A stretch of DNA of 64,000 bases from a candidate division WOR-3 bacterium (GTDB lineage: Bacteria; Hydrothermota; Tepidihabitantia; Tepidihabitantales; DTDR01): NCBI GenBank assembly GCA_039801725.1, contig JBDRVE010000004.1, positions 6,992-70,991 on the forward strand, written 5' to 3'. This document shows positions 35,287-64,000 of this stretch, in pieces. The stretch's first letter is position 1, and each line of letters starts with the position of its first letter. The notes under the pieces are model-generated. The model ran no database searches. It saw only the letters and a program-made list of their open reading frames with translations, and was not told where the DNA came from. Position numbers and translations under genes: made by a program.

Positions 35287-35294
35287 AATACCTC

Positions 35295-35867: not shown

Positions 35868-35877
35868 CTTTACCTCC

Positions 35878-37488: not shown

Positions 37489-37501
37489 TTTTCACCCCCT
37501 T

Positions 37502-38635: not shown

Positions 38636-38642
38636 AATTAAA

Positions 38643-39410: not shown

Positions 39411-39413
39411 TAA

Positions 39414-39926: not shown

Positions 39927-39934
39927 AAATTTAA

Positions 39935-47267: not shown

Positions 47268-47296
47268 TTGACTTTTGTATTAAGTATTGATATAAT
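47268..47296 (+). promoter_or_regulatory. Sigma70-type promoter for the cytoplasmic hydrogenase operon. The transcript is near-leaderless.
   Basis: TTGACT (47268-47273), 17-nt spacer, TATAAT (47291-47296). The ATG at 47306 is only about 3 nt past the predicted transcription start site, with no Shine-Dalgarno sequence. Confidence 0.5.
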
Positions 47297-47305
47297 TTTT
47301 ATGTT

Positions 47306-48334: not shown

Positions 48335-49167
48335 ACGAAAATTTGTACCAACCTATTCCAATGAGAATTGTAAGAAGATATGATTTAATTGAAAATGTAC
48401 GTTTCTTCCAAGTAAGGCCGATAGATATTGAAAAAGCCTTAACTATAAACTACAAACCTGGCCAATTTATGATGATCTCTCTTTTTGGAGCTGGGGAAGC
48501 CCCTTTTTCTATTTCCTCCTCACCATCTCGTCCTGGTTTATTAGAATTTGGTATTAGGAAAATTGGTGTTCTAACAGAGCAACTGTTTAAATTAAAAGAG
48601 AATGAAATAATTCATATTCGGGGACCTTATGGCAATGGATTTCCAATTGAAAAAATGTATGGTTATAATCTAATTATTGTTGCTGGCGGTTTAGGAGCAG
48701 TGCCTTTGCGTTCTTTACTTTTGTATGCTTTAGATAACCGTGATTTATTTAAAAAGATCTATTTTCTTTATGGTGCCCGACGACCAAAGGAAATGTTATT
48801 TTTAAGGGAATTTTTAGAATTAAAAGAACGAGAAGATTTAGAATGTCTTTTAACAGTAGACAAAGATGATACCGGAACTTGGACCGAGAAAATTGGGGTG
48901 GTAACCGAACTTTTCAAATATTTAAAAGATATTGATCCGCAAAAAACCTATGCGGCAGTGTGTGGTCCGCCGATAATGTATCGATTTGTAATTGATAAAT
49001 TAGTAAGTTTAGAAATCCCTAAACACCAAATTTTAATGACCTTAGAGAGAAGGATGCGGTGCGGTATGGGAAAATGTGGACATTGTGTTATTGGTTCCAT
49101 TTATACTTGTGTTGACGGACCAGTTTTTACTTATTGGGATGTATTACATATGAAAGATTTAATATAA
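48331..49167 (+). CDS. Sulfhydrogenase gamma-subunit-like FNR-family protein (FAD/NAD(P)-binding plus a C-terminal [2Fe-2S] cluster).
   Basis: FNR-like beta-barrel and Rossmann halves (IIVAGGLGAVP) with a C-terminal CGMGKCGHC cluster motif. 278 aa. Confidence 0.7.
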   Translation: MNENLYQPIPMRIVRRYDLIENVRFFQVRPIDIEKALTINYKPGQFMMISLFGAGEAPFSISSSPSRPGLLEFGIRKIGVLTEQLFKLKENEIIHIRGPYGNGFPIEKMYGYNLIIVAGGLGAVPLRSLLLYALDNRDLFKKIYFLYGARRPKEMLFLREFLELKEREDLECLLTVDKDDTGTWTEKIGVVTELFKYLKDIDPQKTYAAVCGPPIMYRFVIDKLVSLEIPKHQILMTLERRMRCGMGKCGHCVIGSIYTCVDGPVFTYWDVLHMKDLI

Positions 49168-49178
49168 AATTTAAGAAT

Positions 49179-49955
49179 ATGGAAAAGAAATTAAAAGTTG
49201 GTTTTTATGAATTTACCGGCTGTGCCGGTGATTTATTAACTATTGTTCACAATGAAGATTATCTTCTAAAAGTTTGGAATTCGGTAGAAATTGTCAGTTT
49301 TCGTTTGGCAACAAGCAAACGAAATGAAAAAACAAATTTAGACATTGCCTTCGTTGAAGGTTCGATAACCAGCGAAGAGCAAATAGAAGAACTTAAAAAA
49401 ATAAGAGAAAAAAGCAAAATTTTAGTAGCCTTAGGGACTTGTGCTTCTTTTGGTGGTTTACAATCAATGTATTCTCACCAAGAGGATTTTTTAACCCGTT
49501 TCAACTCCGTTTATCCTCATAAATTTGCTATTTTAAAACCCTTGGAATCAAAACCATTAGAAAATTATGTAAAAGTAGATTATTTTATTCCGGGTTGCCC
49601 TATTGATTTTAAACTTTTTCTTTTTAACTTTACAAGACTTTTGAGAAATCTGCCGGTAGAATTACCTTATTATCCTGTCTGTTTAGAATGCAAATGGCGA
49701 GAAAACAATTGTCTCCTTTTAAAAAGGATTCCCTGTTTAGGTCCTTTAACTCGTGCCGGCTGCTCAGCAAGATGTCCAACTAACAATCTACCTTGTGTTG
49801 GCTGTTTCGGTCCTTACGAAGATTTAAACCTTTCTTCTTGGTTAAAAATCTTTCAAGAAAATAACATTCCTTTTAAGGAATTAGAAAAAAAAGTGAGACT
49901 ATTTTGGGGAACAAAAGCAAAAGAAATTTTAAAACAACTTAAAAATAAAAGATGA
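49179..49955 (+). CDS. [NiFe] hydrogenase small (delta) subunit, group 3b type.
   Basis: GCAGD and GTCASFGG proximal-cluster motifs, plus further Cys clusters. Start set at Met 49179 because the 49134 start would overlap the upstream gene. Confidence 0.7.
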   Translation: MEKKLKVGFYEFTGCAGDLLTIVHNEDYLLKVWNSVEIVSFRLATSKRNEKTNLDIAFVEGSITSEEQIEELKKIREKSKILVALGTCASFGGLQSMYSHQEDFLTRFNSVYPHKFAILKPLESKPLENYVKVDYFIPGCPIDFKLFLFNFTRLLRNLPVELPYYPVCLECKWRENNCLLLKRIPCLGPLTRAGCSARCPTNNLPCVGCFGPYEDLNLSSWLKIFQENNIPFKELEKKVRLFWGTKAKEILKQLKNKR

Positions 49956-51241
49956 AGAAAATAAAAGTAGATTTAGTTACCCGTGTTGAGGGACACGGAA
50001 ATATTTATATTGAAATTTACAAGAATAAATTTAAAAGCATCAAATTTGAAATTCCCGAAGGTCCCAGGCTTTTTGAAACCTTGGTCCTTAACAAAACCCC
50101 AGAAGAAGTACTGAATATAGTATGTCGGATTTGCGCAATCTGTAATGTTTCCCATCGTTACTCAGCGATTCGGGCATTAGAAAAAATTGGTAATATTAAA
50201 GTTCCTAACGAAATTATCCTTTTACGAGATTTAGCTCATTATGGAGAAATGTTAGAAAGTCATGCCTTACATCTTTTCTTTCTTGCCTTGCCTGACTTCT
50301 TGGGATTTCCCGATGCTATTAGTATGGCAGAAAAATTTCCGGATCTCGTTCAAATTGGTTTGAGAATTAAGAAATTTGGAAATTCCATAATGGAAAAAAT
50401 TTTAGGTAGAATGATGCATGGTGAAAATATGATTATTGGGGGTTTTGGCAGATATTTAACCGCTGAAGAACTAATGGACATTAAAAAGGAAGCCGAGCAA
50501 TTGTTACCGGAAGCAATAAAATCTTGGGAAGTTACTCGTGACCTTCATTATACCACTTTTTGTGAAGAAAGCATGCTTTTTGTTTGTCTAAAACCGCCAA
50601 CCGATGAATATGGTTTCTGGGGTGATGAAGTATTGATCTCCAATGGAGAAGAATATCCAATTGAAAAATTTTATTCTTTAATTGAAGAAAGAATTGTTCC
50701 CCATTCCTCCGCTAAACATTCTTATTATCAAAATCGTCCTTATATGGTTGGTGCTTTGGCAAGAATGAGTTTATTAGGAGAAAGATTACACAATGCCTCG
50801 GCAGAAGCTTTTAAAAAGAGTTATAGTTTAAGTTGGATAAGAAATCCGTTATATAACAATCTTGCCCAAGCAATTGAGATTATTTTTTCGTTAGAAAAAG
50901 TAATTTCGACGGCGGAAGAACTTTTAAAGAAAACACCCTTCAAAGAAACATTAATAACTTATCAAAAATTTAATGGGAAAGCGGTCGGCAGCGTTGAAGC
51001 ACCCCGGGGAACACTTTTCCACTATTATGAATTTAAAAATAAAAAATGCGCGAAAGCAAACTTAATTATTCCAACAGCCCAAAATTATGCCTCTATTGAA
51101 CAGCATCTGAAAGTTTGTGTTTGTAATATAATTAAAAAATTTGGAGTAAAAGAAGAAGAATTAATTAGTGAATCAGAAAAAATTATTCGCGCCTATGACC
51201 CCTGTATTTCTTGTTCTTGTCATATTGTAAGAACTTCTTAA
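49952..51241 (+). CDS. [NiFe] hydrogenase large (alpha) subunit, group 3-like.
   Basis: N-terminal RVEGHG and RICAICNVSH (L1 CxxC). C-terminal DPCISCSCH (L2 DPCxxCxxH). 429 aa. Confidence 0.85.
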   Translation: MKKIKVDLVTRVEGHGNIYIEIYKNKFKSIKFEIPEGPRLFETLVLNKTPEEVLNIVCRICAICNVSHRYSAIRALEKIGNIKVPNEIILLRDLAHYGEMLESHALHLFFLALPDFLGFPDAISMAEKFPDLVQIGLRIKKFGNSIMEKILGRMMHGENMIIGGFGRYLTAEELMDIKKEAEQLLPEAIKSWEVTRDLHYTTFCEESMLFVCLKPPTDEYGFWGDEVLISNGEEYPIEKFYSLIEERIVPHSSAKHSYYQNRPYMVGALARMSLLGERLHNASAEAFKKSYSLSWIRNPLYNNLAQAIEIIFSLEKVISTAEELLKKTPFKETLITYQKFNGKAVGSVEAPRGTLFHYYEFKNKKCAKANLIIPTAQNYASIEQHLKVCVCNIIKKFGVKEEELISESEKIIRAYDPCISCSCHIVRTS

Positions 51242-51846
51242 TATCCCCAAACTTCTTCCAGATAAACTTTTCTTCGACAGGTAGGGCAAAGAATTTGTAA
51301 ATGGGAAGCCCGGTAAGGAAATTCTTTAGTTTCTATTTTTGGCTCGTAAACCAAACCTAATTCTTTATAATAAGTTAAAAATAAAGTTGGGTTAGCCGAA
51401 ATTAAAGTTCCAACTTTTTTGGCAACCCAAATTATTTGGTCTTTGGGAGCAATTATTTCGCCACAAGAAGCACAAAGGATTAATTCTTTTTCTATTTCGT
51501 TTTTATAATTATCTTTTTTTAAAGAGGCTAAATCAAATTCCGGTGTGTGTTTAATCCCTTCGCCCGTAATACAATATCTTACACATTGACCACAATAAAT
51601 ACATTTTTCTTGATAATGAATAACTTTTCTAATTTTTTTATCTTTATCGTCAATTATCTCTCTTGCCTTAGAAGGACAAACTTCCGCACAAGCACCGCAC
51701 CCAACACATTTCTCTTCATTGAAAACGATTTTTCCCCGAAAATTAGGAAAAACTTTTGCTGGCCGATAAGGAAATTTTATTGTATAAGGACCCTTAAAAA
51801 TTGCTTTGATGGCTTCTTTTAATTCTCTTAATTTAGGTTGTCTCAT
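51238..51846 (-). CDS. NuoI/HycF/MbhN-like 2x[4Fe-4S] ferredoxin subunit of the membrane-bound hydrogenase.
   Basis: CVGCGACAEVCP and CIYCGQCVRYC motifs. 202 aa. Last gene of the minus-strand hydrogenase/Mrp operon. Confidence 0.7.
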   Translation of the reverse strand: MRQPKLRELKEAIKAIFKGPYTIKFPYRPAKVFPNFRGKIVFNEEKCVGCGACAEVCPSKAREIIDDKDKKIRKVIHYQEKCIYCGQCVRYCITGEGIKHTPEFDLASLKKDNYKNEIEKELILCASCGEIIAPKDQIIWVAKKVGTLISANPTLFLTYYKELGLVYEPKIETKEFPYRASHLQILCPTCRRKVYLEEVWGY

Positions 51847-52198
51847 CTTCTTTGCTTATTTGAGAATAACCTTTTTTATCTTCACTAAATTTATCAACAA
51901 TACTTTTGTACCAAAGTTTTGTTCCAAAAAGTAGTGAACCACGGGATAAAGCATGGGCAGCAACCGGCATTGTAAAAAGAATGAATAAGGCACAAATCAA
52001 CGCTTTAATTCCCATTTGGGTAAAACCACTAATAAAAAAGATACCAAACATTATACCACAAGTACCAATAGTAACGCATTTTGTTGATGCTTGCATACGA
52101 TTATATAAATCAGGAAATTTCACTAATCCCAAAGCACCCAATAAATCAAAGATTACGCCCACAATAATAAATATCCAACCTAAATAATAAAAGAACAT
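51833..52198 (-). CDS. mrpG: Mrp antiporter subunit G-like (MnhG).
   Basis: LGALGLVKFPDLYNRMQASTKCVTIG matches the MnhG consensus. 121 aa, 3 TM helices. Confidence 0.65.
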   Translation of the reverse strand: MFFYYLGWIFIIVGVIFDLLGALGLVKFPDLYNRMQASTKCVTIGTCGIMFGIFFISGFTQMGIKALICALFILFTMPVAAHALSRGSLLFGTKLWYKSIVDKFSEDKKGYSQISKEDETT

Positions 52199-52210
52199 AA
52201 ATTCTCCTTT

Positions 52211-52465
52211 TTAATCATCTAAATTTCTTCCCTCTAAATATTTTGCTAATGCCAAAGTTCCAACAAAAGCCAATATGGCAATGGTAATTGAAAGGTCTAA
52301 TAAATAAGGTAAATTATAACGAAAAGCCATCAAAGCAGTTATTCCACAGAAAAGAATTGACATAATATCAACAGCAATTGCGCGGTCAGAGATAGACGGT
52401 CCTCTTAATGCCCGATAAAGACTAAAAAAGGCAGCCAATGATAAAATAGTAATTAATATACTCAT
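52211..52465 (-). CDS. mrpF: Mrp antiporter subunit F-like (MnhF).
   Basis: 84 aa, 3 TM helices. LYRALRGPSISDRAIAVD is a MnhF-like motif. Confidence 0.6.
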   Translation of the reverse strand: MSILITILSLAAFFSLYRALRGPSISDRAIAVDIMSILFCGITALMAFRYNLPYLLDLSITIAILAFVGTLALAKYLEGRNLDD

Positions 52466-52467
52466 AT

Positions 52468-52956
52468 TTACTCAAAAATCCTTTTTAAATATTTTTCAAA
52501 AGTTTGGGCAATTATTTTCTTTGCCTTTTCCTCATCTTCTTCTTTTATCCAAATCCAATGGATATAAAGAGTATCGCCATCTATTTCACAAGTCATTGTT
52601 CCCGGTGTCAAAGTAATAGAATTGGCTAAAAAAGTTTTAGCAATATCCGTTTTTAAAGATGTTTTTATTTTTATAATCCCTGGTTTTAAAGGCATACCAG
52701 GATGCAAAACTCTTAAAGCAACATCTAAATTCGCTTCTAAACACTTATAAGCAAAGATGGGGATGTAAACTAAAAGCCAAAACCACCGGTGGACTTGGAA
52801 AATTTTTATTGGCTTTTCAATAAAATAACCACCAAAAATAATACCGCTCAATAAAGAAACCACAACACCGACAATAATTTCATCGTAATTTAAACTAAAA
52901 GTAAGTAAAAACCATAAAATTAAAGCAACAATAAAAAAGATAACCTTTCTCATCAT
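52468..52956 (-). CDS. mrpE: Mrp antiporter subunit E-like (MnhE).
   Basis: 162 aa. Two N-terminal TM helices plus a soluble domain. Its position between mrpD and mrpF is conserved. Confidence 0.55.
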   Translation of the reverse strand: MMRKVIFFIVALILWFLLTFSLNYDEIIVGVVVSLLSGIIFGGYFIEKPIKIFQVHRWFWLLVYIPIFAYKCLEANLDVALRVLHPGMPLKPGIIKIKTSLKTDIAKTFLANSITLTPGTMTCEIDGDTLYIHWIWIKEEDEEKAKKIIAQTFEKYLKRIFE

Positions 52957-54452
52957 CTCATTAAAACTAATCTTGCGTATTCAATACCTCTAATTATTGC
53001 CTCGCTTGCCTTACTAATTAAATTTGGTTCTAGATAATTAAAATAGAAAATACCAAGAATAAGAATTAGAAAGACCAAAAATAGAAAACTTATCGCTATC
53101 AAACCCGACTCTTTCACTTCTTCGCCCTCTCTTTTTGTGAAAACTTTATTGGTAATTTTTAATAAATAAGCCAAAGTTAATAATGAAAATATTCCTAAAA
53201 CAATTGCCAGCCAAAACATTTTTTCTTTGATGGCTCCTAAAATTAAAAATAGTTTTGGGAAGAACCCTAAGAAAGGCGGAATTCCTGCCAAAGAAAGAGC
53301 ACCTAAAGTATATACTATTCCGGAAAAAGGCATTCTCTTTTTTAAAAAAGCAAGTTCATTAATATCCAAAGTACCCATTTCTCTTTCTACTGGTCCAGCA
53401 GTCAAAAATAAAAGACCCTTACCCAAAGCGTGGGCGAAAATTAAAGATAAAGCACCGGTAATTCCCCAAAAGTTGGCAATGCCCAATCCTACAAATATAT
53501 ATCCTATTTGACTTACACTAGAATAGGCTAACAATCTTTTATAATTTTCTTGTTTTAAGGCAATAAAACCAGCAATTATAATCGATAAAATCCCGAGGAT
53601 AATTAGAATATCAAAATAATGGGAAGCATTATTTCTATTTAAACCAAATACATTAAAGATTAAACGGGAAAGAGCATAAACACCCAAGGTCTTAATGAAC
53701 ACACCAGAAAGCATTGCTGAAATTGGAGCCGGTGCCTGAGAATGAGCATCTGGTAGCCAAAAATGGAAAGGAAAGAGAGCAGATTTTATTAGAAATCCAA
53801 AGGTTAGAAGGGAGATAATAAACCAGAATAAAGTTCCCTTATTTTCATTTATAAAAGTATTAGCAATATCTGCCATATTTAATGTGGAAGTCTTTGAATA
53901 AATGAGGGCAATCGCTAAAAGAATAGTTAAACCCGCAATCTCACCAATAACCTGGTATTTGAAACTGGCTTCCAAGTCTTCTTTTTCTACACCAAAAGCA
54001 ACTAACGCATAGGAAGAAATTGCTGAAATTTCAATAAAGACAAAAAGGTTAAATAAGTCACCGGTGATTGCGATACCATTTAAACCAGCAACCATTAATA
54101 AGAATAATGTCCAGAATTTCCAGCGACCAGTATAATTATCTAAATAAGTAATCGAATAAATAGCGCAAGCAAAACTCAAAAGATTGATTATCAAAACCAT
54201 TAACAATGATAAACTATCAAAAGTGAAAACAATTCCTAAGGGAATCGGTTTTATCGGCCATTTACCAATCTCATAGACATAAATATTACCGAAAATTGGC
54301 AATAGAAAAAGGGAATAAATACTTAAAATCAATAGTAATGTAGTAATAATATTTCCAATAATATCTGATAATCTTTCCCATATTTTAGAAAGTAAGGGAA
54401 TTAAAAAAGCACCTAATAAAGGTAAAGCAGTAAATAACGGTAAATAATTCAT
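52953..54452 (-). CDS. mrpD: MrpD/NuoM-like antiporter-type membrane subunit.
   Basis: 499 aa. Proton-pumping antiporter-like fold (broken-helix Lys/Glu pattern). SQIGY-type motif (YSSVSQIGYIFVGLG). Confidence 0.7.
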   Translation of the reverse strand: MNYLPLFTALPLLGAFLIPLLSKIWERLSDIIGNIITTLLLILSIYSLFLLPIFGNIYVYEIGKWPIKPIPLGIVFTFDSLSLLMVLIINLLSFACAIYSITYLDNYTGRWKFWTLFLLMVAGLNGIAITGDLFNLFVFIEISAISSYALVAFGVEKEDLEASFKYQVIGEIAGLTILLAIALIYSKTSTLNMADIANTFINENKGTLFWFIISLLTFGFLIKSALFPFHFWLPDAHSQAPAPISAMLSGVFIKTLGVYALSRLIFNVFGLNRNNASHYFDILIILGILSIIIAGFIALKQENYKRLLAYSSVSQIGYIFVGLGIANFWGITGALSLIFAHALGKGLLFLTAGPVEREMGTLDINELAFLKKRMPFSGIVYTLGALSLAGIPPFLGFFPKLFLILGAIKEKMFWLAIVLGIFSLLTLAYLLKITNKVFTKREGEEVKESGLIAISFLFLVFLILILGIFYFNYLEPNLISKASEAIIRGIEYARLVLMR

Positions 54453-54787
54453 TCTTTTAACCTTTTTATTTCTTTAATATCAAAAGTTTTATATTTTTCA
54501 TAAATTCTTATTGCTACGGATAAAAGCAAAGCAGTAGTACCCAAACCAATTACGATTGCTGTCAAAACCAAAGCCTGAGGAATTGGATCAACGAAATTCC
54601 TTGCTTGTTGAGCATTAGTATAAATTGGTGCTAAGGCATCTTTTTTATAACCAATAAACGCAAAAAATAGATTTACCGCATATTCCAATAAGCAAAAGCC
54701 AATAGCAATTTTAATCAAATTCCTTTTTGTTAATATCGCATAAATACCAATTAGAAAAAGAATTATACAACCTAAATAAGGTAACAT
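54449..54787 (-). CDS. mrpC: MrpC/NuoK-like subunit.
   Basis: 112 aa, 3 TM helices. LIGIYAILTKRNLIKIAIGFCLLEYAVNLF resembles NuoK/MnhC. Confidence 0.65.
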   Translation of the reverse strand: MLPYLGCIILFLIGIYAILTKRNLIKIAIGFCLLEYAVNLFFAFIGYKKDALAPIYTNAQQARNFVDPIPQALVLTAIVIGLGTTALLLSVAIRIYEKYKTFDIKEIKRLKE

Positions 54788-54789
54788 AA

Positions 54790-55224
54790 TTACTCCTTCA
54801 TTATAAATCTTGTTGCAGCAATTGCTAAAAAGATAGCAAAAAGTCCAGCCCCAACTTTTATGCCAATCGCTACATTACATAAAGGTATTATTCCCGAAGA
54901 AAAAAGCATAAAGACTTTTCCTTTTGGTAAAAAATTATAGAAAAATTGAGAACCTAAAATAAGACCAAATAAAGCAATAAGAACAAACAAAAGTCCACCA
55001 ATACTTTCGAAAATTGAAGAATAAATATAACTTATCCTTTCTTTTATCTCTTCACTACCGAAGGCGAGGATTAAAAGAATAAAGGAAGCAGAAATTATTA
55101 CTCCGCCAGCAAAACCACCGCCAGGAGTTAGATGACCGTGAAAAATAATATATATCCCATAAAGAAAGATTAAACCTACCAAAAGTTTCGTTATTGTTTT
55201 TACAATAATTGTCATTCCCCTCAT
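54790..55224 (-). CDS. mrpB: MrpB-like subunit (MnhB domain).
   Basis: GHLTPGGGFAGG is the hallmark MnhB motif. 144 aa. Confidence 0.7.
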   Translation of the reverse strand: MRGMTIIVKTITKLLVGLIFLYGIYIIFHGHLTPGGGFAGGVIISASFILLILAFGSEEIKERISYIYSSIFESIGGLLFVLIALFGLILGSQFFYNFLPKGKVFMLFSSGIIPLCNVAIGIKVGAGLFAIFLAIAATRFIMKE

Positions 55225-55754
55225 TTTATTTTCCCTATCTTTCTTAAAATTGTTAATACTCCAATTACCGAAGTAAAAAGAACAGTTGCTTCTCCTAAAG
55301 TATCATATCCCCGAAAATCTAAAATAACTGCTGCCACTTGATTGGCTGCCCTTATCTCTTCAAATCCTTTCGCTAAATAATGGGAAGCAATTTTCATAAT
55401 TGGCATTCCAAATTGAGGTAATTCTTTTAACGCCAAAATAGAAAGAATTAAAAAGAATATTCCAAAAAGGACAAAAACTCCTTTTGTTAAATAATCTCTT
55501 ACTTTCATTCTCTCTTCTAAGGTTGTATCAATATGGGTAGTTTTTAATATCACTCCAACAAAGATAACTACTGTTAAAACTTCAACAACTATTTGGACAA
55601 TTGCCAAATCAGGTGCCTGGGTTAAAATAAACATAATCGCTACTGAAAAACCAACAATTCCTAAAGAGATTGCTGAAGCAAGTAAATCTTTAATCTCTAC
55701 CGCAACAATTCCAGCACCAATAGCCACTATTAATAAAATATAAAGTTCAATCAT
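55221..55754 (-). CDS. MbhD-like (DUF4040) membrane subunit.
   Basis: 177 aa and polytopic. Its position between the NuoL-like and MrpB genes matches MbhD/MrpA C-terminal domain modules. Confidence 0.45.
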   Translation of the reverse strand: MIELYILLIVAIGAGIVAVEIKDLLASAISLGIVGFSVAIMFILTQAPDLAIVQIVVEVLTVVIFVGVILKTTHIDTTLEERMKVRDYLTKGVFVLFGIFFLILSILALKELPQFGMPIMKIASHYLAKGFEEIRAANQVAAVILDFRGYDTLGEATVLFTSVIGVLTILRKIGKIK

Positions 55755-57634
55755 AAAACTAAAATTAATAAAATTATAATAATTCCGATAAATATTACAA
55801 CTAAATAATCACTCAGAATTCCTGATTGAATTTTTCTTAATAAACCACCAAAAATTTCTGAAAGATAAGCAATTACCTGATAGATTAATTCTAAAATGTA
55901 ATCAATCACTTTTTTAAACAATAAAGATAAAACACCAAAAATTGCCTTAAAATAATTGTAAAAATCAAAACTACCTTCTTCGCCAAATTCATATCCTTTA
56001 CTTAATAGTGGTGCTTCTTTGATTGGTGAATAGAATTGGTCGCCAGAAAAATGTCTCTCTTCCTCTTTTAACATTTCACCACCAACAAAAATTTCCTTTC
56101 TTTCGACTTTCTTTATCGTTCTCAATAAATAAATAATAAATCCAATAATAGTTCCCAAGATAATTAAGATAAATGCCAATAATGGTTGCCAAAATCCAAA
56201 TTCTTCAATTTTAAATGGTAAAGAAGGATAAATAAGTCCCTTTAAAGGCAAAGGAATTGCTAATATACCAAATAAAACACATAAAAATGCCAATAAAGTT
56301 GAAGGAAACCATAATGAAAAATTAACCTCTTTTATCCTTTCATATTCTTTTGGTCTTTCACCAAGAAAGATAGAATGGGTTAACTTTAAAAAGGAAGCCA
56401 AAGTAAGGATACTACCAAGCATTGCTGCCAAGAGATATAAAGGAAATAGATAATTTCCTTCTTTATATAAATAAATAACTCCTTGATAAACCATCCATTT
56501 TGAGAAAAAGCCGTTTAATGGCGGAATTCCCGAAATTGCTAAAGCAGAAATCAAAAAGGAGGTAAAGGTTATTGGCATATTAGTTGCTAAACCACCTAAC
56601 TTTTCAATTTTTGTTTCTTTAGTCCAGAACTCCACTTGACCAGTAGTTAAAAAGAGAGCAGTTTTATAAATCACATTATTAAGCATATGGAAAAGACCGC
56701 CAGCAATACCAATAGGAATTCCAGTACCAATTCCTAAAACCATATAACCAACTTGGGATACAGCATGGAACGAAAGTAACCTCATCGCCTCTTTTTGGAT
56801 TAGCGCCATTAATACTGCTGCTAAAATTGTTATTGAGCCAATTATCATTAAATAATTTTTCAATATAAAATTGGTATTCAAATCAAAAAGATAATAACTT
56901 GCTCTTAAAAGAAGATAAATTCCCAAAAGTTTATCTAAGGACGCTGGAATAAATGCCATTGTTGATGCTGGCATAACTTTGCTAATATCTGGTATCCAAG
57001 AGTGGAGCGGAATAGCACCTGCCTTCGCAAAGCAACCGATTGTAATTAGAATAAAAGCAAGGATATTTATAGTATTATTTAAAGATAATCGCCAATTTAA
57101 AGAAATATTGCCGTAGGAAATGAATAATAAGGCAAGCCCAAGGATTAATAGAAAATCACTCAATCCTAAAATAAAGATACTCTTTATAAAAGCAGATTCA
57201 CCGTTATTTTTAGTAGTAAGTTGGAAAAAGCCAAAGATTAAAGAAAGCAAGATTCCCCAAAAGATTATTAGGGTTAAAATATCTCCTGCCAAAGCAATTC
57301 CGCAACCAATTGCGCCGATTAAAAGCAGATAATAAAAGTATTCTTTTTTCTTTTCATAGTATTTTAAATAACGGATAGAATAAATTAAAATCAAAAGGGT
57401 AAAAAGGGAAATAAATAAAATAATAAAACCACTTAATTTATCAATACTAAAATTTAATACATCAAAAATCTTTCTTGTTATTTCTATTTTTCTTGACATA
57501 AGGAAAATTCTTATTGCGTAATAAAAGTTTAAGAAGGCTCCTAAGAAATAAAACTCATTTCTTAAAAAATTAATTAAATAACCTAAAAATCCAAAAATTA
57601 TCGGTAAAACAATTAAAAGTTCAAAACTGCTCAT
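55751..57634 (-). CDS. mrpA: NuoL/MrpA-like antiporter-type membrane subunit.
   Basis: 627 aa. VSQVGYMVLGIGTG motif and a long C-terminal extension. Confidence 0.7.
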   Translation of the reverse strand: MSSFELLIVLPIIFGFLGYLINFLRNEFYFLGAFLNFYYAIRIFLMSRKIEITRKIFDVLNFSIDKLSGFIILFISLFTLLILIYSIRYLKYYEKKKEYFYYLLLIGAIGCGIALAGDILTLIIFWGILLSLIFGFFQLTTKNNGESAFIKSIFILGLSDFLLILGLALLFISYGNISLNWRLSLNNTINILAFILITIGCFAKAGAIPLHSWIPDISKVMPASTMAFIPASLDKLLGIYLLLRASYYLFDLNTNFILKNYLMIIGSITILAAVLMALIQKEAMRLLSFHAVSQVGYMVLGIGTGIPIGIAGGLFHMLNNVIYKTALFLTTGQVEFWTKETKIEKLGGLATNMPITFTSFLISALAISGIPPLNGFFSKWMVYQGVIYLYKEGNYLFPLYLLAAMLGSILTLASFLKLTHSIFLGERPKEYERIKEVNFSLWFPSTLLAFLCVLFGILAIPLPLKGLIYPSLPFKIEEFGFWQPLLAFILIILGTIIGFIIYLLRTIKKVERKEIFVGGEMLKEEERHFSGDQFYSPIKEAPLLSKGYEFGEEGSFDFYNYFKAIFGVLSLLFKKVIDYILELIYQVIAYLSEIFGGLLRKIQSGILSDYLVVIFIGIIIILLILVL

Positions 57635-58749
57635 AATATTTTAAAAAAGTAAACTAAAAATATAATTCCAAATATTAATAATAAAAGTCCAAAAATATAA
57701 ACAATGGAATTAGCGATAATATTTTCTCCTTTCTCTTTTTTTAATAGCGGATAAAATTTTAAGGTATAAAGTAAAGTGAAAAGGGAACTAATTATTGCTA
57801 AAATTCCTAAAAAGATATTTATTTTTAAACTACCAATAATAATCAGTAGTTTGCCAACAAAACCTAAAAGAGGTGGAATTCCCATTAAAGATAACGATAA
57901 GAGTGCTAATCCAAAATTAGTTCCGTTATCTTCTTTTGCTTCCATTTTATAAAATAATCCAGGCTTGGCTAAGGCATGGGAAAGGATTAAAATTAAACCA
58001 CCAATTATTCCGTATTCATTTTTTAAAGCGAAACCTAATAAAATAAAAGAAAGTTGGCTGATTGTGGAATATGCCAAAATCCTTTTTATCTCCTTCTCAA
58101 AATAGGCAATTCCACCAGCAATTATTGAAGTAAGAATTGCTAAAATAATAACAAAATAATAGAAACTACTTTCCACTTCCAACCAAAAAGAAGTAAATAT
58201 TTTGTAAAAGATAATTAAACCTAAATTTTCAGCAATTCCGCAAAGAAGGGCAATCACTGGTATTGGCGAAACTTCGTAAACCGGAGGTAGCCAATTATAA
58301 AAAGGAACAATCGCTGATTTCGTAAAGATACCACAGGAGAGTAAAATACCTGAAGTTAAAGAAATATTGTAAATATTTTCTAAATTAAAAGCCTCAAAGG
58401 AAATTCTCTCAATATTATTCTCTGTTAAAATCAATAAAATTCCGATTAACATCAATATCGCACCAGCAAAATTAAAGTATAAAAGGTAATTACCTGCCTT
58501 AATATTCTCTCTTCTTATTAATACCAATCGCCAAGTTGCTAACGTGGATATTTCAAAGAAGATATAGATTAATAAGAGATTGTTAGAGATAATGATAAAA
58601 TAACTGGCAATAATAAGCAGAATTAAAAAGAGATAGAATTCAAAATTCCTCACTAATTTATCTTTAAAAGAATAAATTAAGGTTGCCAAGAAGGGAAGGA
58701 GAAAGGTAAATAATAAGTATTGATTTACAAAATTTTTATCTAAAATCAT
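57631..58749 (-). CDS. Short NuoN/HycC-like antiporter-type membrane subunit.
   Basis: 372 aa. AYSTISQLSFILLGFAL motif. A truncated relative of the antiporter-like fold. Confidence 0.5.
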   Translation of the reverse strand: MILDKNFVNQYLLFTFLLPFLATLIYSFKDKLVRNFEFYLFLILLIIASYFIIISNNLLLIYIFFEISTLATWRLVLIRRENIKAGNYLLYFNFAGAILMLIGILLILTENNIERISFEAFNLENIYNISLTSGILLSCGIFTKSAIVPFYNWLPPVYEVSPIPVIALLCGIAENLGLIIFYKIFTSFWLEVESSFYYFVIILAILTSIIAGGIAYFEKEIKRILAYSTISQLSFILLGFALKNEYGIIGGLILILSHALAKPGLFYKMEAKEDNGTNFGLALLSLSLMGIPPLLGFVGKLLIIIGSLKINIFLGILAIISSLFTLLYTLKFYPLLKKEKGENIIANSIVYIFGLLLLIFGIIFLVYFFKIL

Positions 58750-59924
58750 ATTTTATTATATTTCCTTTTTAATTTTTCGGTCAATTCCCAAGATAATTTT
58801 AAGATATCTTCATAATCCATAATCTTTTTTTTATCAGCATACACCGCAATCCTTTCGGTACAACAATAGCAAGGGTCAACAGCGGCCAAGGTTAATGCCG
58901 CATCAGCAATTGAATAACCAACACAGGCATAAGCATTAGAAGCAATATTCATATAACTTGGCGCCCTTATTTTATGTCTAATCGGATGGTTCATTCCGCT
59001 TGTCCTTACATAGTGAAAAACTTCTCCTCTTGGTGCCTCTGCCCTGCCAATTCCTTCGCCCATTGGAATCTCATCAACTTTCGTCTCAATCTCTCCTTTA
59101 GGCATCTTTTTTAAACATTGTCTAATTATCTTTATTGATTCTAAACATTCTAACAATCTTACTTTTGCTTTTGCTAATACATCTCCCTCTTCAAAGGTAA
59201 TCACATCCCATTCAATTCTATCATATGCCGCGTGTGGATCATCTTTTCTCACATCTATTTTTAAACCACTTGCCCGCGCGGTCGGACCAACAACACCATA
59301 ATCAATTGCCACCTCTTTTGGTAAAATCCCAACATCCTTTAATCTTGCTAAAATTACCGGATCATCTAATATTGCCTTGGTAAACATCCAAGTTGCCTTT
59401 TCTACTTCTAATAGGATATTCTCAATCACTGGTATCTGTTCATCTTTTATATCCCATCTGACACCACCAACTTTATTCATCGCATAATGGTTTCTATTTC
59501 CCGTAACCATTTCAAAAATGTCTAATATTGGTTCCCGATATTTCCATGCCCACATCCAAACGGTATTATAACCAATAAAATGACCAGCCAGTCCCAGCCA
59601 GAGAAAATGAGAATGGATTCTTTCTAATTCGTGATTTATTGTCCTTATATATAATGCCCTTTCTGGTACCTGGATTTTTGCCGCATCCTCTACCGCCTGA
59701 ACAAAAGCCAAAGGATGGGAATTGGAACAGATACCACATATCCTTTCTACTAAATAGGCAATTTGCTCATAAGTCATTTTTGGTGATAAAAATTCGTGTC
59801 CCCGATGATTATAACCAATATTTATCTCTACCTCTACCACCTTTTCTCCTTCAACAATTAATTTAAAGAATTCTGGCTCTTCTTGTAAAGGATGATAAGG
59901 ACCAATTGGAATAACTCTTCTCAT
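58746..59924 (-). CDS. Group 4 [NiFe] hydrogenase large subunit (NuoD/HycE/MbhL-like).
   Basis: N-terminal RICGICSNSH (Ni-binding CxxC) and C-terminal DPCYCCTER (DPCxxCxxR). 392 aa. Confidence 0.85.
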   Translation of the reverse strand: MRRVIPIGPYHPLQEEPEFFKLIVEGEKVVEVEINIGYNHRGHEFLSPKMTYEQIAYLVERICGICSNSHPLAFVQAVEDAAKIQVPERALYIRTINHELERIHSHFLWLGLAGHFIGYNTVWMWAWKYREPILDIFEMVTGNRNHYAMNKVGGVRWDIKDEQIPVIENILLEVEKATWMFTKAILDDPVILARLKDVGILPKEVAIDYGVVGPTARASGLKIDVRKDDPHAAYDRIEWDVITFEEGDVLAKAKVRLLECLESIKIIRQCLKKMPKGEIETKVDEIPMGEGIGRAEAPRGEVFHYVRTSGMNHPIRHKIRAPSYMNIASNAYACVGYSIADAALTLAAVDPCYCCTERIAVYADKKKIMDYEDILKLSWELTEKLKRKYNKI

Positions 59925-60352
59925 ATCCCTTCGTAATCTCTCCTTAAAGGATGTTTATCTCTTGGCCAATCTTCACTTGTTAGTAATGGTTTTAAGTTTT
60001 TATGACCAATAAAATTAACTCCCAGAAGTTCCCAAATCTCCCTTTCAATCCACTCGCTTGCCTTTGTTATATCAGAAATTGTATCAACTTCTGGATTATC
60101 TCGATCAGTAATAATTTTTACCGTGTAATATGTGCCGGTTTTATCTTCGGAAAAATGGTAAAGGATTTCTATACCATCTCTCGTATCAACACCGGTCATA
60201 ATAGATAACCTTAAACCTTTCTCTTTATGTAAAAAATAAGCAATCTCTCTAATCTTTTCTTTACTTATTTTTAGATATAATCTTCTTTTGTTATGTTCGT
60301 AAACTTCTATTTCGGGAAATCTATTTTTTATCTCTGTTAACAATTCACTCAT
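59921..60352 (-). CDS. NuoC/MbhK-like 30-kDa-type subunit.
   Basis: 143 aa. NuoC-like fold. Conserved position between the small and large subunits. Confidence 0.65.
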   Translation of the reverse strand: MSELLTEIKNRFPEIEVYEHNKRRLYLKISKEKIREIAYFLHKEKGLRLSIMTGVDTRDGIEILYHFSEDKTGTYYTVKIITDRDNPEVDTISDITKASEWIEREIWELLGVNFIGHKNLKPLLTSEDWPRDKHPLRRDYEGI

Positions 60353-60762
60353 AATTTACTTAATGCCTTAACCACACCAGCAATTATCGCTTCTGGTTTT
60401 GGAGGACAACCAGGAATATAAACATCCACTGGTATATGTTTATCATAAGGTCCAACAACATTATAAGAGTCTTTAAACATATGACAATCACAGGCACAGG
60501 TGCCGACCGCAATCACTAAACAAGGTTTTGGTGTCTGATTATAAACTTCTAAAACCCTCGGTAAAGTCTTTCGATTGATAACTCCGGTAACCAACAAAGC
60601 ATCCGCATGTCTTGGTGAGCCAACCAATAAAATACCAAATCTCTCAACATCAAAACGGGGAGTTAAGGCAGCCAAAATTTCAATATCACAATTATTACAA
60701 GAGGCTGCCGCTACATGGAAAACCCAAGGAGATTTCTTTAATGCCTTTAACTTAATACTCAT
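60349..60762 (-). CDS. Group 4 [NiFe] hydrogenase small subunit (NuoB/HycG/MbhJ-like).
   Basis: CNNCDIE, GTCACDC and DVYIPGCPP proximal-cluster motifs. 137 aa. Confidence 0.85.
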   Translation of the reverse strand: MSIKLKALKKSPWVFHVAAASCNNCDIEILAALTPRFDVERFGILLVGSPRHADALLVTGVINRKTLPRVLEVYNQTPKPCLVIAVGTCACDCHMFKDSYNVVGPYDKHIPVDVYIPGCPPKPEAIIAGVVKALSKL

Positions 60763-61688
60763 AAGCCACTCAATACTAAAATAATTCCTAAAATTGAAAA
60801 AGGTCCTAATATAAACCAGAAAAATTTCAATGCCTGGTCAATCCTTAACCTCGGATTAGTATTTTTCATTAAAACGATTAATAAGAAAATAATTAGGAAT
60901 TTGATAATAAATGTAAAAATATTTCTTGCTGGCCATAATAATGATATTAATAAAGCAGGTAAAGATAAAAGTAATATCGCTCTTGCCAATTTAAAAAGCG
61001 CCAAACAAACTCCTGAATATTCTAAAATTGTTCCCGCCATTATCTCTTGTTCTGCTTCGGCAATATCAAAAGGCACATAGCCCAATTTTGCTTGAAAGAT
61101 AAAAAGTAAGGTTAAGGCACTGATTATTCCTGATAAAGAATAAAGAAAAGGTAAATTCGTTTGTGCCAAAATTATTTCTCCCATTTTAATCTTGCCACCT
61201 GCTTTTATTATCGGAATAAGTAAGGCAAAAATAAAAGGAAGTTCATAACTAATTAACAATGTCATTTCCCTACTGGCACCACAAGCACTTAACGGATTAC
61301 GCGAAGAAGAAGCACCTAAAATAAAACCAACAGGCACCATAGTTAGAAAATATAAAATAACAATTATATCACCTAAAAAAGATTTCTGAGGATATAAAAG
61401 AAAATAGTAAATCATTGTGCCACTAATCAAGGCACTCAAAAAAGATAAAATTGGCGCAAAAAGAAAGGTTAATTTACTACTATTAACTGGAATAATTACT
61501 TCTTTTAATAATAGTTTAAGAAAATCAGCATAAGGTTGATACCAAGGTGGACCAACCCGCCACTGGATCCTTGCGGTTATCTTTCTATCAAGAAAGGTTA
61601 AAAACATTCCAATAACTGTTAAGAAAAGAAAACCAGGGAAAATTAGGAAATTAAATAATAGAGTTAATACATTCATACCCTTCGCCAA
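60759..61688 (-). CDS. NuoH/HycD/MbhM-like membrane subunit.
   Basis: 309 aa with 8 TM helices. NuoH-like loops (PFDIAEAEQEI). Confidence 0.75.
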   Translation of the reverse strand: MAKGMNVLTLLFNFLIFPGFLFLTVIGMFLTFLDRKITARIQWRVGPPWYQPYADFLKLLLKEVIIPVNSSKLTFLFAPILSFLSALISGTMIYYFLLYPQKSFLGDIIVILYFLTMVPVGFILGASSSRNPLSACGASREMTLLISYELPFIFALLIPIIKAGGKIKMGEIILAQTNLPFLYSLSGIISALTLLFIFQAKLGYVPFDIAEAEQEIMAGTILEYSGVCLALFKLARAILLLSLPALLISLLWPARNIFTFIIKFLIIFLLIVLMKNTNPRLRIDQALKFFWFILGPFSILGIILVLSGL

Positions 61689-62146
61689 TAAGGTGAACGG
61701 GATATATATCTTACACCAACCTTAACTTTTTCCACTTCCTTTTCGGTGATAAATCTCAAAGCACCAGTCGCACAAGAATTGGCACATCTTGGACCTTGCT
61801 CATTTTGATAGCAGAGATTACATTTTTGGGTTACATGGTTAAGTAAACTATTTTCAATCACACCAAAAGGACAGGCCAAAGCACAACTTTTACAACCAAC
61901 ACAATGAAAACTTGCCTGAAAGATAATATTTCTCTCTTTGTCCCTTTTAATCACATCAAAAGGACAGGCAGCAGCACACAAAGGCTCTTCACAATGCTTA
62001 CAAGCATGCGATAAGATAACCGTTGGTTTAATCTCATTAATTGTTATCCTTCTTTCATTCTCAAAATAACTACGACAAGCCGATTCACAAGACCGACAAC
62101 CAATACACAAATCTAAATCTAAAAAGAGATATCTCCTTTCACTCAT
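61673..62146 (-). CDS. HycB-like 4Fe-4S ferredoxin electron-transfer subunit.
   Basis: Four Cys clusters (CIGCRSCESAC, CKHCEEPLCAAACP, CVGCKSCALACP, CNLCYQ...C). 157 aa. Confidence 0.7.
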   Translation of the reverse strand: MSERRYLFLDLDLCIGCRSCESACRSYFENERRITINEIKPTVILSHACKHCEEPLCAAACPFDVIKRDKERNIIFQASFHCVGCKSCALACPFGVIENSLLNHVTQKCNLCYQNEQGPRCANSCATGALRFITEKEVEKVKVGVRYISRSPYWRRV

Positions 62147-63678
62147 TCTAATATTAAAGGATTAATTATAATAAATTTTTCTTTCTCGTCAAGAGAAATC
62201 GGAAAATACCTTCTACTTGTTAAATCTTCCAATTCTAAAATTGCCAGATTCTCCGGAAGTTCCTCTTTAATCTTTATCGGCAAAGAAATTTTTGTTTCTC
62301 TTTCCCTTTTCAAATATAAATAATTATCCTTCTCAAAGAGCTCTAAGAAATAAAAGGGCTCCCTTTTACCAACTACTACCAAATTATTTTCTATTCTCTC
62401 TTTATTCTCTTTGTAAAAACTTAGATAATTATTAAACCTTTCTAAAATATCCTTCTCTTTATAAACTTTCTCTTTTAAGTAATCAAAATCCTGAATATCT
62501 ATCTTTAAATGAGAATTAATCTCTTCTAAGATTTCCGAAATAGTCCGACTTCCCGAATAAGGAGGAATTAAATTTTTATCTTCTATTGGCAAACTTTGGG
62601 GTAAAAGATAGATAGAAGAAAGAGTATCCAAAGGCATCTGATAGAAACTTGTTAAATATATCTTCTCACAATTTTTAAGTTTTTCATAAACTTGGGGATA
62701 AAAGAAGGATAAGATACTACCAAAGTTTATCAAAACTCTTATCTCTCCTTTTTCTATTTTTTCTAAAATCTCGCCAAAACTAATAGCCAAAGGAAGATGG
62801 TTGAAATTCTTTAAGCCAATAAAATATAAGTTGGTTTTTTTATTACAAAGAAGTTGTGCCAATAAGGAGTATAAGATGGGCTCAAAACTTTTACCACTTT
62901 CCAAAGAGATTATTACCACACCATTTTTAGATGCCAAAATCTTTTCGGAATACAATTCAATTAAAAAGGGATTTATACCGGAAAGTTTTTCTATCTCTTC
63001 TATTTTAAAACCTTTTGTTTTTATTATCTGGGCTTTTTCTAAAATCAAAAATAATACCAATAACTCAGTACCGATTTTTGGAACTAAAAATTGATTAGTA
63101 AAACCGGCTGCCCGATTTCTAAATACATCTATTCCGTATAATAAAACATTCTTATCTTCATACTTCCTTTTTAAAATCCTTCTTGCGACAATGGGAAAAC
63201 TACCAAAGAGATCGCCAATCATTAAAATGAAATCTGCCTTGTCAATCTTTTCTAAATCACCTTCTTTTACACCATTTGCTTTAAAGGAAAAGAAGATATC
63301 AGGCTCTAAATAACTGGAAAAGATATTTTCAATCCCAAAGGATTTAAAGAAACTATATATCTTTTTCTTATCTTCCTCTTTTAAATAGGCATCTAAACCA
63401 ATTGCTACTTCTTCTTTCTTATAGGTCTTTAAATCTTTTACAAGTTCTTTGAGGACATCTTTAAAGTTTTTCTCTTCTTTCTTACCATTATTTATAAAAA
63501 GGGGAAGGGATAACCTCTTTGGACTATCTAACAAAATTGGAATGGTATTACCTCGGGCACAAAGGGGTCCTTCATAATGAATAGCAAACTTAAATTTCTC
63601 TTTCTTGATTGTTAAGGGGCAATTCAAAAAACAGAAAGGACAATTTATTTTTACCATATCAGATAAAGGGGTCTTCAA
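62143..63678 (-). CDS. Molybdopterin-oxidoreductase (Mo-bisPGD) family protein, short form (FdhA/FwdB-like). Possibly non-catalytic.
   Basis: N-terminal CPFCFLNCPL...(x22)...CARG 4Fe-4S motif and the domain-II signature KADFILMIGDLFGSFPIVARRI. Only 511 aa. No recognisable Cys/Sec Mo ligand. Confidence 0.45.
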   Translation of the reverse strand: MKTPLSDMVKINCPFCFLNCPLTIKKEKFKFAIHYEGPLCARGNTIPILLDSPKRLSLPLFINNGKKEEKNFKDVLKELVKDLKTYKKEEVAIGLDAYLKEEDKKKIYSFFKSFGIENIFSSYLEPDIFFSFKANGVKEGDLEKIDKADFILMIGDLFGSFPIVARRILKRKYEDKNVLLYGIDVFRNRAAGFTNQFLVPKIGTELLVLFLILEKAQIIKTKGFKIEEIEKLSGINPFLIELYSEKILASKNGVVIISLESGKSFEPILYSLLAQLLCNKKTNLYFIGLKNFNHLPLAISFGEILEKIEKGEIRVLINFGSILSFFYPQVYEKLKNCEKIYLTSFYQMPLDTLSSIYLLPQSLPIEDKNLIPPYSGSRTISEILEEINSHLKIDIQDFDYLKEKVYKEKDILERFNNYLSFYKENKERIENNLVVVGKREPFYFLELFEKDNYLYLKRERETKISLPIKIKEELPENLAILELEDLTSRRYFPISLDEKEKFIIINPLILE

Positions 63679-64000
63679 TATCTTTTATCTCTTGCCAAGT
63701 TAATACCGGACCATCTTTACAAACAAAATATCTTCCCATCCGACAATGGCCGCACATCCCAACCGCACAAGACATATTCTTTTCCATTGATAAGTAAATA
63801 TTCTCTTCTTTAAAGTTCTTTTCCAATAATTTTTGTAAGGTAAATTTCATCATCAATGGTGGTCCACAAACAACCGCACAAGCGGTATTCACATCACAAG
63901 GAATCTCATCTAACAAAATAGTAACAACACCAACTTTCCCCTTCCAAGTCTCATCACCAACATCAACGGTCAATTCAATATCCACATTCTCAATCTTCTG
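63659..64000 (-). CDS. FNR-family [2Fe-2S] FAD/NAD(P)-binding subunit (HydG/AsrB-like). C-terminal part only: the 5' end lies beyond the window.
   Basis: C-terminus CGPPLMMKF...CAVGMCGHCRMG is paralogous to the 48331..49167 product. The ORF is open to the window edge. Confidence 0.5.
   Translation of the reverse strand, partial: QKIENVDIELTVDVGDETWKGKVGVVTILLDEIPCDVNTACAVVCGPPLMMKFTLQKLLEKNFKEENIYLSMEKNMSCAVGMCGHCRMGRYFVCKDGPVLTWQEIKDIEDPFI

Follow-up and report, generated by a model that had tools for sequence, protein, structure and literature searches.

Which electron carrier serves the membrane-bound [NiFe] hydrogenase encoded at the end of a 64,000-nucleotide (nt) stretch of DNA from an uncultured hot-spring bacterium of candidate division WOR-3? 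In this stretch, hereafter the window, a string of genes on the minus strand at positions 51238-64000 combines a group-4 hydrogenase and homologues of the Mrp antiporter with proteins related to the NAD(P)H module of sulfhydrogenases and with a subunit that we propose to be derived from formate dehydrogenase (FDH). We favour, with moderate confidence, the reading that the locus encodes an NAD(P)H-linked, ion-translocating hydrogenase in which an FDH relic serves as a scaffold or electron wire.

Enzymes of this kind are already known from genomics and are uncharacterised biochemically; the WOR-3 member is new. Matheus Carnevali et al. 2019 (PMC6349859, main text and Supplementary Note 5) described an 'enigmatic' group-4 hydrogenase from Saganbacteria RX5A with Mrp-like subunits, a molybdopterin oxidoreductase that has one 4Fe-4S domain and is not classifiable as an FDH, and cooF-, asrA- and asrB-like genes. 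They proposed that the extra genes form an oxidoreductase module of an Mbh-type enzyme. Meheust et al. (10.1101/765248) named the type 'Mbh-Mrp-oxidoreductase type' in groundwater Elusimicrobia, and both studies called its function unknown. A literature search found no further paper combining these components, and nothing on WOR-3 together with hydrogenase and Mrp. An earlier reading of the window from its letters alone (the sequence-only reading) had rightly called the subtype poorly characterised, and the architecture is less new than that reading assumed, having already been reported in the two genome surveys. The published description matches the locus in its asrA- and asrB-like genes, single-cluster molybdenum (Mo)-like protein, cooF/HycB-like protein, NuoB/C/D/H/I homologues and Mrp genes. 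The locus differs from it in a shorter Mo-like protein of 504 amino acids (aa) that is undetectable with Pfam, in its three antiporter-like subunits and in its WOR-3 host. Within the kind, the WOR-3 version apparently stands out by the strong erosion of its FDH-like subunit and by an enlarged membrane arm. Our analysis converts the 'enigmatic' annotation into a specific, testable wiring diagram.

Hydrogenase core, membrane arm and extent of the operon

Seventeen consecutive open reading frames (ORFs), all on the minus strand, run from window position 64000 down to 51238. They were assigned to families with Pfam and NCBIfam, and selected subunits were compared with the Protein Data Bank (PDB). 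In the order of transcription, with E-values after the matches, they are:

63659-64000 (-): FNR-type subunit (HydG/ShyC/AsrB-like), C-terminal 113 codons of 271 aa; DHODB_Fe-S_bind 1.3e-9, NAD(P)-binding domain, C-terminal [2Fe-2S] motif
62143-63657 (-): putative FDH-derived subunit with a molybdenum bis(pyranopterin guanine dinucleotide) (Mo-bisPGD) fold, 504 aa; fold and profile searches
61673-62146 (-): HycB/CooF-like ferredoxin, 16 Cys in four cluster motifs; Fer4_11 2.1e-14, NCBIfam HydN, DmsB and FDH-beta type
60759-61688 (-): NuoH/HycD/MbhM-like membrane subunit; NADHdh 1e-62; called ATG at 61676
60349-60762 (-): NuoB-type hydrogenase small subunit; Oxidored_q6 1.1e-30; proximal [4Fe-4S] Cys in SCNNC, GTCAC and PGCPP
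59921-60352 (-): NuoC/MbhK-like subunit; Complex1_30kDa 1e-28
58746-59924 (-): [NiFe] hydrogenase large subunit, group 4; Complex1_49kDa and NiFeSe_Hases, both CxxC motifs
57631-58749 (-): truncated antiporter-like subunit, 372 aa; Proton_antipo_M 2e-42; aligns to MbhH residues 88-480
55751-57634 (-): long antiporter-like subunit, 627 aa (NuoL/HycC/MbsH'-like); Proton_antipo_M; 6cfw_H 8.5e-49, 6u8y_X 2.6e-40 (residues 3-543), HycC 7z0s_C 4.3e-35
55221-55754 (-): fused MbhD and MbhE-like protein (C-terminal part of MrpA); MbhD 1.1e-15, MbhE 8.8e-9
54790-55224 (-): MnhB/MbhF-like; MnhB 1.8e-28
54449-54787 (-): MnhC/NuoK/MbhG-like; Oxidored_q2 8.7e-28
52953-54452 (-): MrpD/MbhH-type antiporter-like subunit, 499 aa; Proton_antipo_M 7.5e-68, 6cfw_H 1.7e-78, MrpD 7qru_D 1.5e-61
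52468-52956 (-): MrpE/MbhA-like; MNHE 1.6e-41
52211-52465 (-): MrpF/MbhB-like; MrpF_PhaF 1.4e-15
51833-52198 (-): MrpG/MbhC-like; PhaG_MnhG_YufB 2.5e-22
51238-51846 (-): NuoI/HycF/MbhN-like 2x[4Fe-4S] protein with a Cys-rich C-terminal extension, last gene; NCBIfam formate hydrogenlyase Fe-S subunit 8.5e-27 and NuoI 1.9e-20; Fer4_7

The large subunit carries the segments RICGICSNSH and DPCYCCTER, which line up with the segments that ligate Ni-Fe in MbhL and HycE and keep all four cysteines, as the CxxC and DPCxxCxxR motifs pointed out in the sequence-only reading had indicated. Its best PDB matches are MbhL (6cfw_L, 7.9e-89) and HycE (7z0s_E, 6.9e-74), with bit scores of 301.7 for MbhL (group 4d) and 252.5 for HycE (group 4a; subgroups as defined in HydDB, PMC5037454). 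A 34-aa C-terminal extension past DPCYCCTER is HycE-like. Because both Ni-Fe ligand motifs are kept, the large subunit belongs to a hydrogenase, and a non-hydrogenase complex of the Mbx, Mbs or Ehr type is ruled out. The enzyme is thus predicted to be a group-4 membrane [NiFe] hydrogenase with a complete Mbh-like core, comprising NuoB/C/D/H/I homologues with intact Ni-Fe and Fe-S ligands. About 8000 clusters are related to the large subunit at E <= 1e-50, the top 120 of them at least 71% identical, and the search found the hydrogenase core to be abundant in uncultured FCB-related phyla.

The operon contains a complete set of Mrp homologues (A-like, B, C, D, E, F and G), as judged from Pfam and from PDB matches to MrpD and MbhH; such a set is expected of the Mrp-linked HydDB subgroups 4b and 4d. 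The motif GHLTPGGGFAGG, on which the sequence-only reading had based its MrpB assignment, is present in the translated MnhB-like protein. Three proteins of 372, 627 and 499 aa carry the Proton_antipo_M domain and map to MbhH/MrpD and MbsH'/HycC. The families that the sequence-only reading gave to the core and Mrp subunits agree with Pfam and NCBIfam in each case, and the Ni-Fe motifs together with the full Mrp set bear out its group-4 hydrogenase with an Mrp module.

All 14 subunit types of the membrane-bound hydrogenase (MBH) of Pyrococcus furiosus (PDB 6CFW; group 4d, ferredoxin-coupled, Mrp-linked) have homologues in the operon. MBH is the best match of solved structure for both the large subunit (7.9e-89) and the MbhH-type subunit (1.7e-78). 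It differs in gene order and lacks the four extra peripheral proteins found here, whereas the WOR-3 enzyme has two more antiporter-like subunits (372 and 627 aa) and the HycE-like extension of the large subunit.

The genes are tightly packed. Eleven junctions among the 17 window genes are 4-nt overlaps, and the FNR-type and Mo-like genes are separated by a 1-nt spacer; the others are two gaps of 2 nt, one of 12 nt and an overlap of 14 nt. This agrees with the earlier count of 17 or more co-oriented subunit genes, most overlapping by 4 nt, to which an 18th gene is now added upstream. The window edge cuts the FNR-type gene, and the upstream continuation was obtained from contig L001 (GCA_039801685.1), which agrees with the window at all but 3 of 12,328 bases and extends 2.1 kb beyond its edge. 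In L001, the complete FNR-type gene encodes 271 aa (L001 1639-2454) and is the second gene of the operon. It is preceded, with a 4-nt overlap, by a gene for a 345-aa Fer4_22 protein of the HydB/AsrA-like type. This first gene and its promoter correspond to window-equivalent positions of about 64471-65545, outside the window.

A sequence matching the sigma-70 consensus TTGACA-16-TATAAT at 12 of 12 positions stands ahead of the first gene (L001 569-605, window-equivalent about 65508-65544). It ends 2 nt before the first ATG of that gene and 8 nt before the ATG chosen by the gene caller, which suggests a leaderless or nearly leaderless operon transcript. Promoter-like matches overall are not enriched, with 67 found against 58 +/- 8 expected in shuffled sequence. 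In the related locus L010, which is 64% identical, the operon opens with the HydB/AsrA-like gene behind a divergent intergenic region, and the neighbours upstream of that region are unrelated (purQ-like, ferredoxin and pyridine nucleotide-disulphide oxidoreductase genes). From the coupled junctions, the perfect promoter before the HydB/AsrA-like gene and the divergent region in L010, we predict that the locus is one 18-gene operon. The absence of intergenic space, with the only strong promoter in front of the first gene, rules out a separate upstream transcription unit and supports the co-transcription of the FNR-like subunit that the sequence-only reading had assumed.

A second promoter-like site, matching at 11 of 12 positions, lies within the 3' end of the Mo-like gene (window 62165-62192 (-), L001 3921-3948), 19 nt before the start codon of the HycB-like gene. 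Transcription of the hydrogenase core might start there, from an internal promoter.

Most assemblies of the strain and its close relatives (L001 1-572; 5' ends of L002-L004, L007-L009 and L090-L092) end a short way ahead of the operon, no more than about 600 bp from its start where that is reached; L008 ends inside the first gene. The ORF adjoining the break (at least 189 aa, rich in Asn, Lys and Glu) has no Pfam match. In a sibling metagenome-assembled genome (MAG), GCA_039801745.1, splits or truncations affect the NuoC-like and MbhD/E-like genes (L002 / L090 5519-6177 and 10344-10759), reflecting either assembly error or strain-level inactivation of the complex.

Predicted NAD(P)H module and formate dehydrogenase-like subunit

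The proteins encoded by the first two genes of the operon are homologous over their full length to P. furiosus sulfhydrogenase I (SHI, PDB 9NEZ), one to its beta and the other to its gamma subunit. The E-values are 3.6e-45 for the gamma-like protein (to 9nez_C, over residues 10-263) and 3.7e-25 for the beta-like protein (to 9nez_B). NCBIfam places them with ShyB/HydB/AsrA (beta-like) and ShyC/HydG/AsrB (gamma-like), below the equivalog cut-offs. The pair carries the Pfam domains NAD_binding_1, DHODB_Fe-S_bind and Fer4_22, and the gamma-like protein has an NAD(P)-binding domain and a C-terminal [2Fe-2S] motif. SHI and AsrABC bind FAD and NAD(P)H through the gamma/AsrB-type protein and use the beta/AsrA-type protein as an Fe-S wire. 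The input module is accordingly predicted to be a beta/gamma pair of the group-3b sulfhydrogenase type rather than NuoF-like. SHI is a group-3b enzyme related to AsrA/AsrB, in which beta and gamma accompany an alpha/delta pair, whereas the gene context here is a membrane group-4 enzyme.

The genome also encodes its own group-3b beta and gamma subunits, to which the beta-like and gamma-like proteins are 28% and 37% identical, respectively. The two pairs are therefore diverged paralogues, not near-identical copies. The group-3b (sulfhydrogenase-type, NADP-coupled) [NiFe] hydrogenase operon is complete, occupies window positions 47306-51241 (+) in the order beta, gamma, delta, alpha, and is convergent with the group-4 operon. 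The stop codon of its large-subunit gene overlaps that of the NuoI-like gene by 4 nt (51238-51241), leaving no room for a terminator. Between them, the two operons give the cell two different hydrogenases, each with a beta/gamma-type module.

The third gene of the operon encodes the 504-aa Mo-like subunit. Its most likely start is the ATG at 63657, which gives an N-terminus common to all relatives, and not the TTG at 63678. The protein has no Pfam match at all. Its NCBIfam matches are sub-threshold: the NuoG model (TIGR01973; cut-off 470 bits) gives 42.5 bits and is matched at profile positions 268-451 only, and Fdh-alpha (cut-off 666 bits) gives 24.9. Profile and fold searches were therefore needed to establish family membership. 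The clusters recovered by a word-indexed search numbered only eight, had identities of 63-99% and came without exception from WOR-3 or unnamed MAGs; a word-indexed profile search found nothing beyond these eight WOR-3 clusters and one unrelated 982-aa Mo-enzyme. Among 185,579 species genomes, only four have a close relative. When 1.84 billion representatives were searched with a profile, 152 relatives emerged, including 22 below 1e-30, mostly of 500-570 aa. Among 27 aligned members, Pfam detects Molybdop_Fe4S4 in 20, Molydop_binding in 18 and Molybdopterin in nine, and none of the three in the window protein.

The AlphaFold2 model based on the 27-sequence alignment reached a predicted local distance difference test score (pLDDT) of 92; a model based on nine close relatives only reached 37 and was discarded. 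Foldseek matched the retained model to Nap, FDHs, FdhH of formate hydrogenlyase (FHL; 1fdi, 7z0t_A) and NuoG with E-values of 4e-21 to 1e-16, FdhH being among the top matches and NuoG standing at about 1e-16. TM-scores are 0.71-0.77 when normalised to the query and 0.52-0.55 when normalised to the target, and the subunit has about 200 residues fewer than FdhH. The family profile matched F420-dependent FDH at 1e-50 and FdhF of the hydrogen-dependent CO2 reductase at 2e-43. The Mo-bisPGD family named in the sequence-only reading is thereby upheld, although the start codon is shifted.

The residues that carry formate chemistry in FDHs are replaced. The FDH segment CAR[LI][U/C]H aligns to ASSYLEP, with Tyr116 and Leu117 at the position of selenocysteine (Sec) or Cys and His. 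Among the 27 members, the Sec/Cys column holds Tyr, Phe or Trp in 23 and Cys in none, and the His column holds Leu or Ile in 20. The Arg-bearing segment PLRGQNNVQG aligns to plaesasalgk, followed by a deletion of about 40 residues, and the 504-aa gene contains no in-frame TGA. The single [4Fe-4S] cluster motif is kept: C6, C9, C13 and C33 are invariant in the close WOR-3 alignment and present in 26 or 27 of the 27 sequences of the wider one. The protein begins directly with this FS0-type CxxCxxxC...C motif. It is also the least conserved of the 16 subunits compared. The mean pairwise identity across nine distant loci is 84% for NuoB-like, 77% for NuoD-like, 69% for HydG-like, 68% for HycB-like, 53% for HydB-like and 38% for Mo-like proteins, the last being lowest in 25 of 36 pairs.

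We propose that the 504-aa subunit derives from an FDH, has lost formate chemistry, and has been kept as a one-cluster scaffold or electron wire. The 'probably degenerate Mo-protein' of the sequence-only reading thus finds support in both the fold and the replaced residues. Since the Sec/Cys, His and Arg residues of FDHs are all replaced, formate coupling is unlikely, and of the NAD(P)H- or formate-linked enzyme envisaged earlier, the NAD(P)H half is retained through the SHI beta/gamma homologues.

Complex I descended from group-4 hydrogenases, and the FDH-like domain of its NuoG subunit is cofactor-less. NuoG (Nqo3) and the 504-aa subunit share an FDH-derived Mo-bisPGD fold without FDH catalytic residues, placed in an electron-input arm. 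In contrast to NuoG, the 504-aa subunit has no N-terminal [2Fe-2S] or extra [4Fe-4S] domain and is nearer to FDH and Nap in sequence and fold. A NuoG orthologue is ruled out by domain architecture and score. The dehydrogenase partner here is FNR-type (FAD) and not NuoF-type (FMN) as in complex I. The NuoF/NuoG-style input module suggested by the sequence-only reading therefore fails for NuoF, in whose place sulfhydrogenase beta/gamma are found, and survives as a parallel to NuoG in the FDH-derived fold.

The gene arrangement recurs in other organisms. A metagenome scan seeded with distant members of the Mo-like family collected 79 loci, in which gene order was read by tblastn with the 18 operon proteins. 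The order beta-like, gamma-like, Mo-like, HycB-like is kept in 15 metagenomic loci (L011-L024, L061) and in four genome loci (L007-L010), and the HycB-like protein was found on 23 public contigs. Most loci continue with NuoH, B, C and D, antiporter-like, Mrp and NuoI genes as far as the contig reaches; the contigs of L015, L022 and L024 end before NuoH. The membrane arm occurs in three variants. Loci L011 and L016 have no Mrp genes and a single antiporter-like subunit followed directly by NuoI; L014, L017, L018 and L061 have one antiporter-like subunit together with MrpB, C, E, F and G; and L020, L023 and the WOR-3 loci have three antiporter-like subunits. Because L011 and L016 keep the input module and the catalytic core without Mrp genes, the linkage of the module is tighter with that core than with the Mrp arm.

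Proposed electron path and alternative readings

In the NAD(P)H-linked enzyme that we favour, the beta-like, gamma-like, FDH-relic and HycB-like proteins would form an extended peripheral arm. Electrons would be exchanged between NAD(P)H and the FAD and [2Fe-2S] cluster of the gamma-like subunit, and from there with the Fe-S clusters of the beta-like subunit. The path would continue through the [4Fe-4S] cluster of the FDH relic to the HycB-like clusters, and then through the NuoI-like and NuoB-like subunits to the [NiFe] site. The FDH relic would act as both scaffold and wire, as does the cofactor-less domain of NuoG in complex I. Interconversion of NAD(P)H and H2 would be coupled to the movement of Na+ or H+ via the Mrp arm. 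The standard potentials of NAD(P)+/NAD(P)H (-320 mV) and H+/H2 (-414 mV) correspond to about 18 kJ/mol per two electrons, and two directions are therefore possible. The complex might reduce NAD(P)+ with H2 and pump about one ion, or it might dispose of NAD(P)H as H2, driven by an ion gradient or by low H2.

Several points weigh against this proposal. That the four extra proteins are attached to the hydrogenase is deduced solely from conserved, translationally coupled gene order. The neighbouring soluble NADP-type group-3b hydrogenase looks redundant. The production of H2 from NAD(P)H is endergonic under standard conditions, and an advantage to the cell is therefore not obvious, nor is the direction in which the complex would run. 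The HycB-like and NuoI-like proteins could take electrons from ferredoxin as in MBH, and NAD(P)H may not be the sole or main partner. Pfam models still detect many relatives of the Mo-like subunit (Molybdopterin in 9 and Molydop_binding in 18 of 27). The basic residue after the fourth Cys (CA[RK]GN), which in FdhH links the pterin to the cluster, is kept, and loss of the pterin cofactor is therefore unproven; in the WOR-3 branch, we consider it likely.

The enzyme could instead be a ferredoxin-dependent, H2-evolving pump of the MBH type, with the extra module being an NAD(P)+-reducing side branch, fed from ferredoxin or H2, or a separate, co-transcribed soluble enzyme. The catalytic and membrane subunits do have their nearest solved relative in the ferredoxin-dependent MBH of P. 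furiosus, related loci vary in the membrane arm and not in the core, and the 11/12 promoter-like site before the HycB-like gene could allow separate expression of the core. Such sites, however, are no more frequent than in shuffled sequence, and translational coupling joins the four extra genes to the core, with which they are kept in every full-length locus recovered, even where the Mo-like proteins are only roughly 25-50% identical. Moreover, the four-cluster HycB-type proteins of FHL bridge to a bound dehydrogenase (PDB 7z0s). We consider this ferredoxin-based reading unlikely. Still less likely, in our judgement, is that Mo/W-bisPGD catalysis persists in the 504-aa subunit, with Tyr or Ser as an unusual metal ligand and with another substrate, so that the complex would link that substrate, NAD(P)H and H2. 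The family profile aligns with FDHs at 1e-50 across the domains that bind the pterin in FDH, most relatives keep Molydop_binding and Molybdop_Fe4S4 matches, and the residues SSY are highly conserved at the ligand position. Against this stand the lack of any Pfam Mo-enzyme match in the window protein and its WOR-3 relatives, further deletions of the WOR-3 proteins in the pterin-contact region and the C-terminal barrel, the rapid divergence of the Mo-like subunit, which evolves fastest in the complex, and the shortfall of some 200 residues relative to FdhH seen in the two TM-scores.

The layout of Mo-fold protein, HycB-like protein, group-4 hydrogenase and Mrp genes mirrors that of E. coli FHL-1 (7Z0S/7Z0T, group 4a) and Thermococcus onnurineus Fdh2-Mfh2-Mnh2 (group 4b), where Mo-bisPGD-fold and HycB-type genes likewise stand ahead of a group-4 hydrogenase; Mrp genes are common to the Thermococcus system and the operon here. 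Together with FDHs being the best sequence relatives of the Mo-like family, this could point to a true FHL or a formate-respiring group-4b complex. The Mo-fold protein here, unlike that of the FHL systems, lacks the catalytic Sec/Cys, His and Arg and falls about 200 residues short of it; its gene has no in-frame TGA, and it has no Pfam Mo-domain match. FHL has no counterpart of the added NAD(P)H-type beta/gamma pair, and no formate transporter (FocA/FdhC) was found among the 18 operon genes or the annotated flanking genes. A true FHL was rejected on the absence of the catalytic residues, and we hold formate-driven function to be very improbable.

To our knowledge, characterised energy-converting hydrogenases use ferredoxin, formate or CO, and none is known to use NAD(P)H directly. 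As the core is abundant in uncultured FCB-related phyla, the function of the complex bears on the balance of NAD(P)H, H2 and ion gradients in uncultured anaerobes. We speculate, with somewhat more doubt than conviction, that the complex is a present-day counterpart of the transition by which group-4 hydrogenases gave rise to complex I. As an ion-translocating hydrogenase, it would exchange electrons with NAD(P)H and use a cofactor-less FDH relic as an analogue of NuoG, and it would have been built independently, with a sulfhydrogenase-type FNR dehydrogenase instead of NuoEF. Were this true, no energy-converting hydrogenase before it would have been coupled directly to pyridine nucleotides. The stripped FDH-fold subunit would be a second, independent case of NuoG-like recruitment, relevant to models of complex I evolution.

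Other features of the window

No tRNA or tmRNA (ARAGORN) and no Rfam family at the gathering threshold were found in the whole window. An AT-rich stretch of about 850 nt (46459-47305) contains no ORF of at least 50 aa, no tRNA or tmRNA and no Rfam family. It is located between a 105-aa ORF, which stands beside an SmpB-like gene (read from its translation), and the group-3b operon. Further away, positions 30720-40471 (-) hold a type IV pilus / type II secretion cluster with a prepilin peptidase, a T2SSE ATPase, a secretin, PilO, PilM and four pseudopilins with N-methyl motifs.

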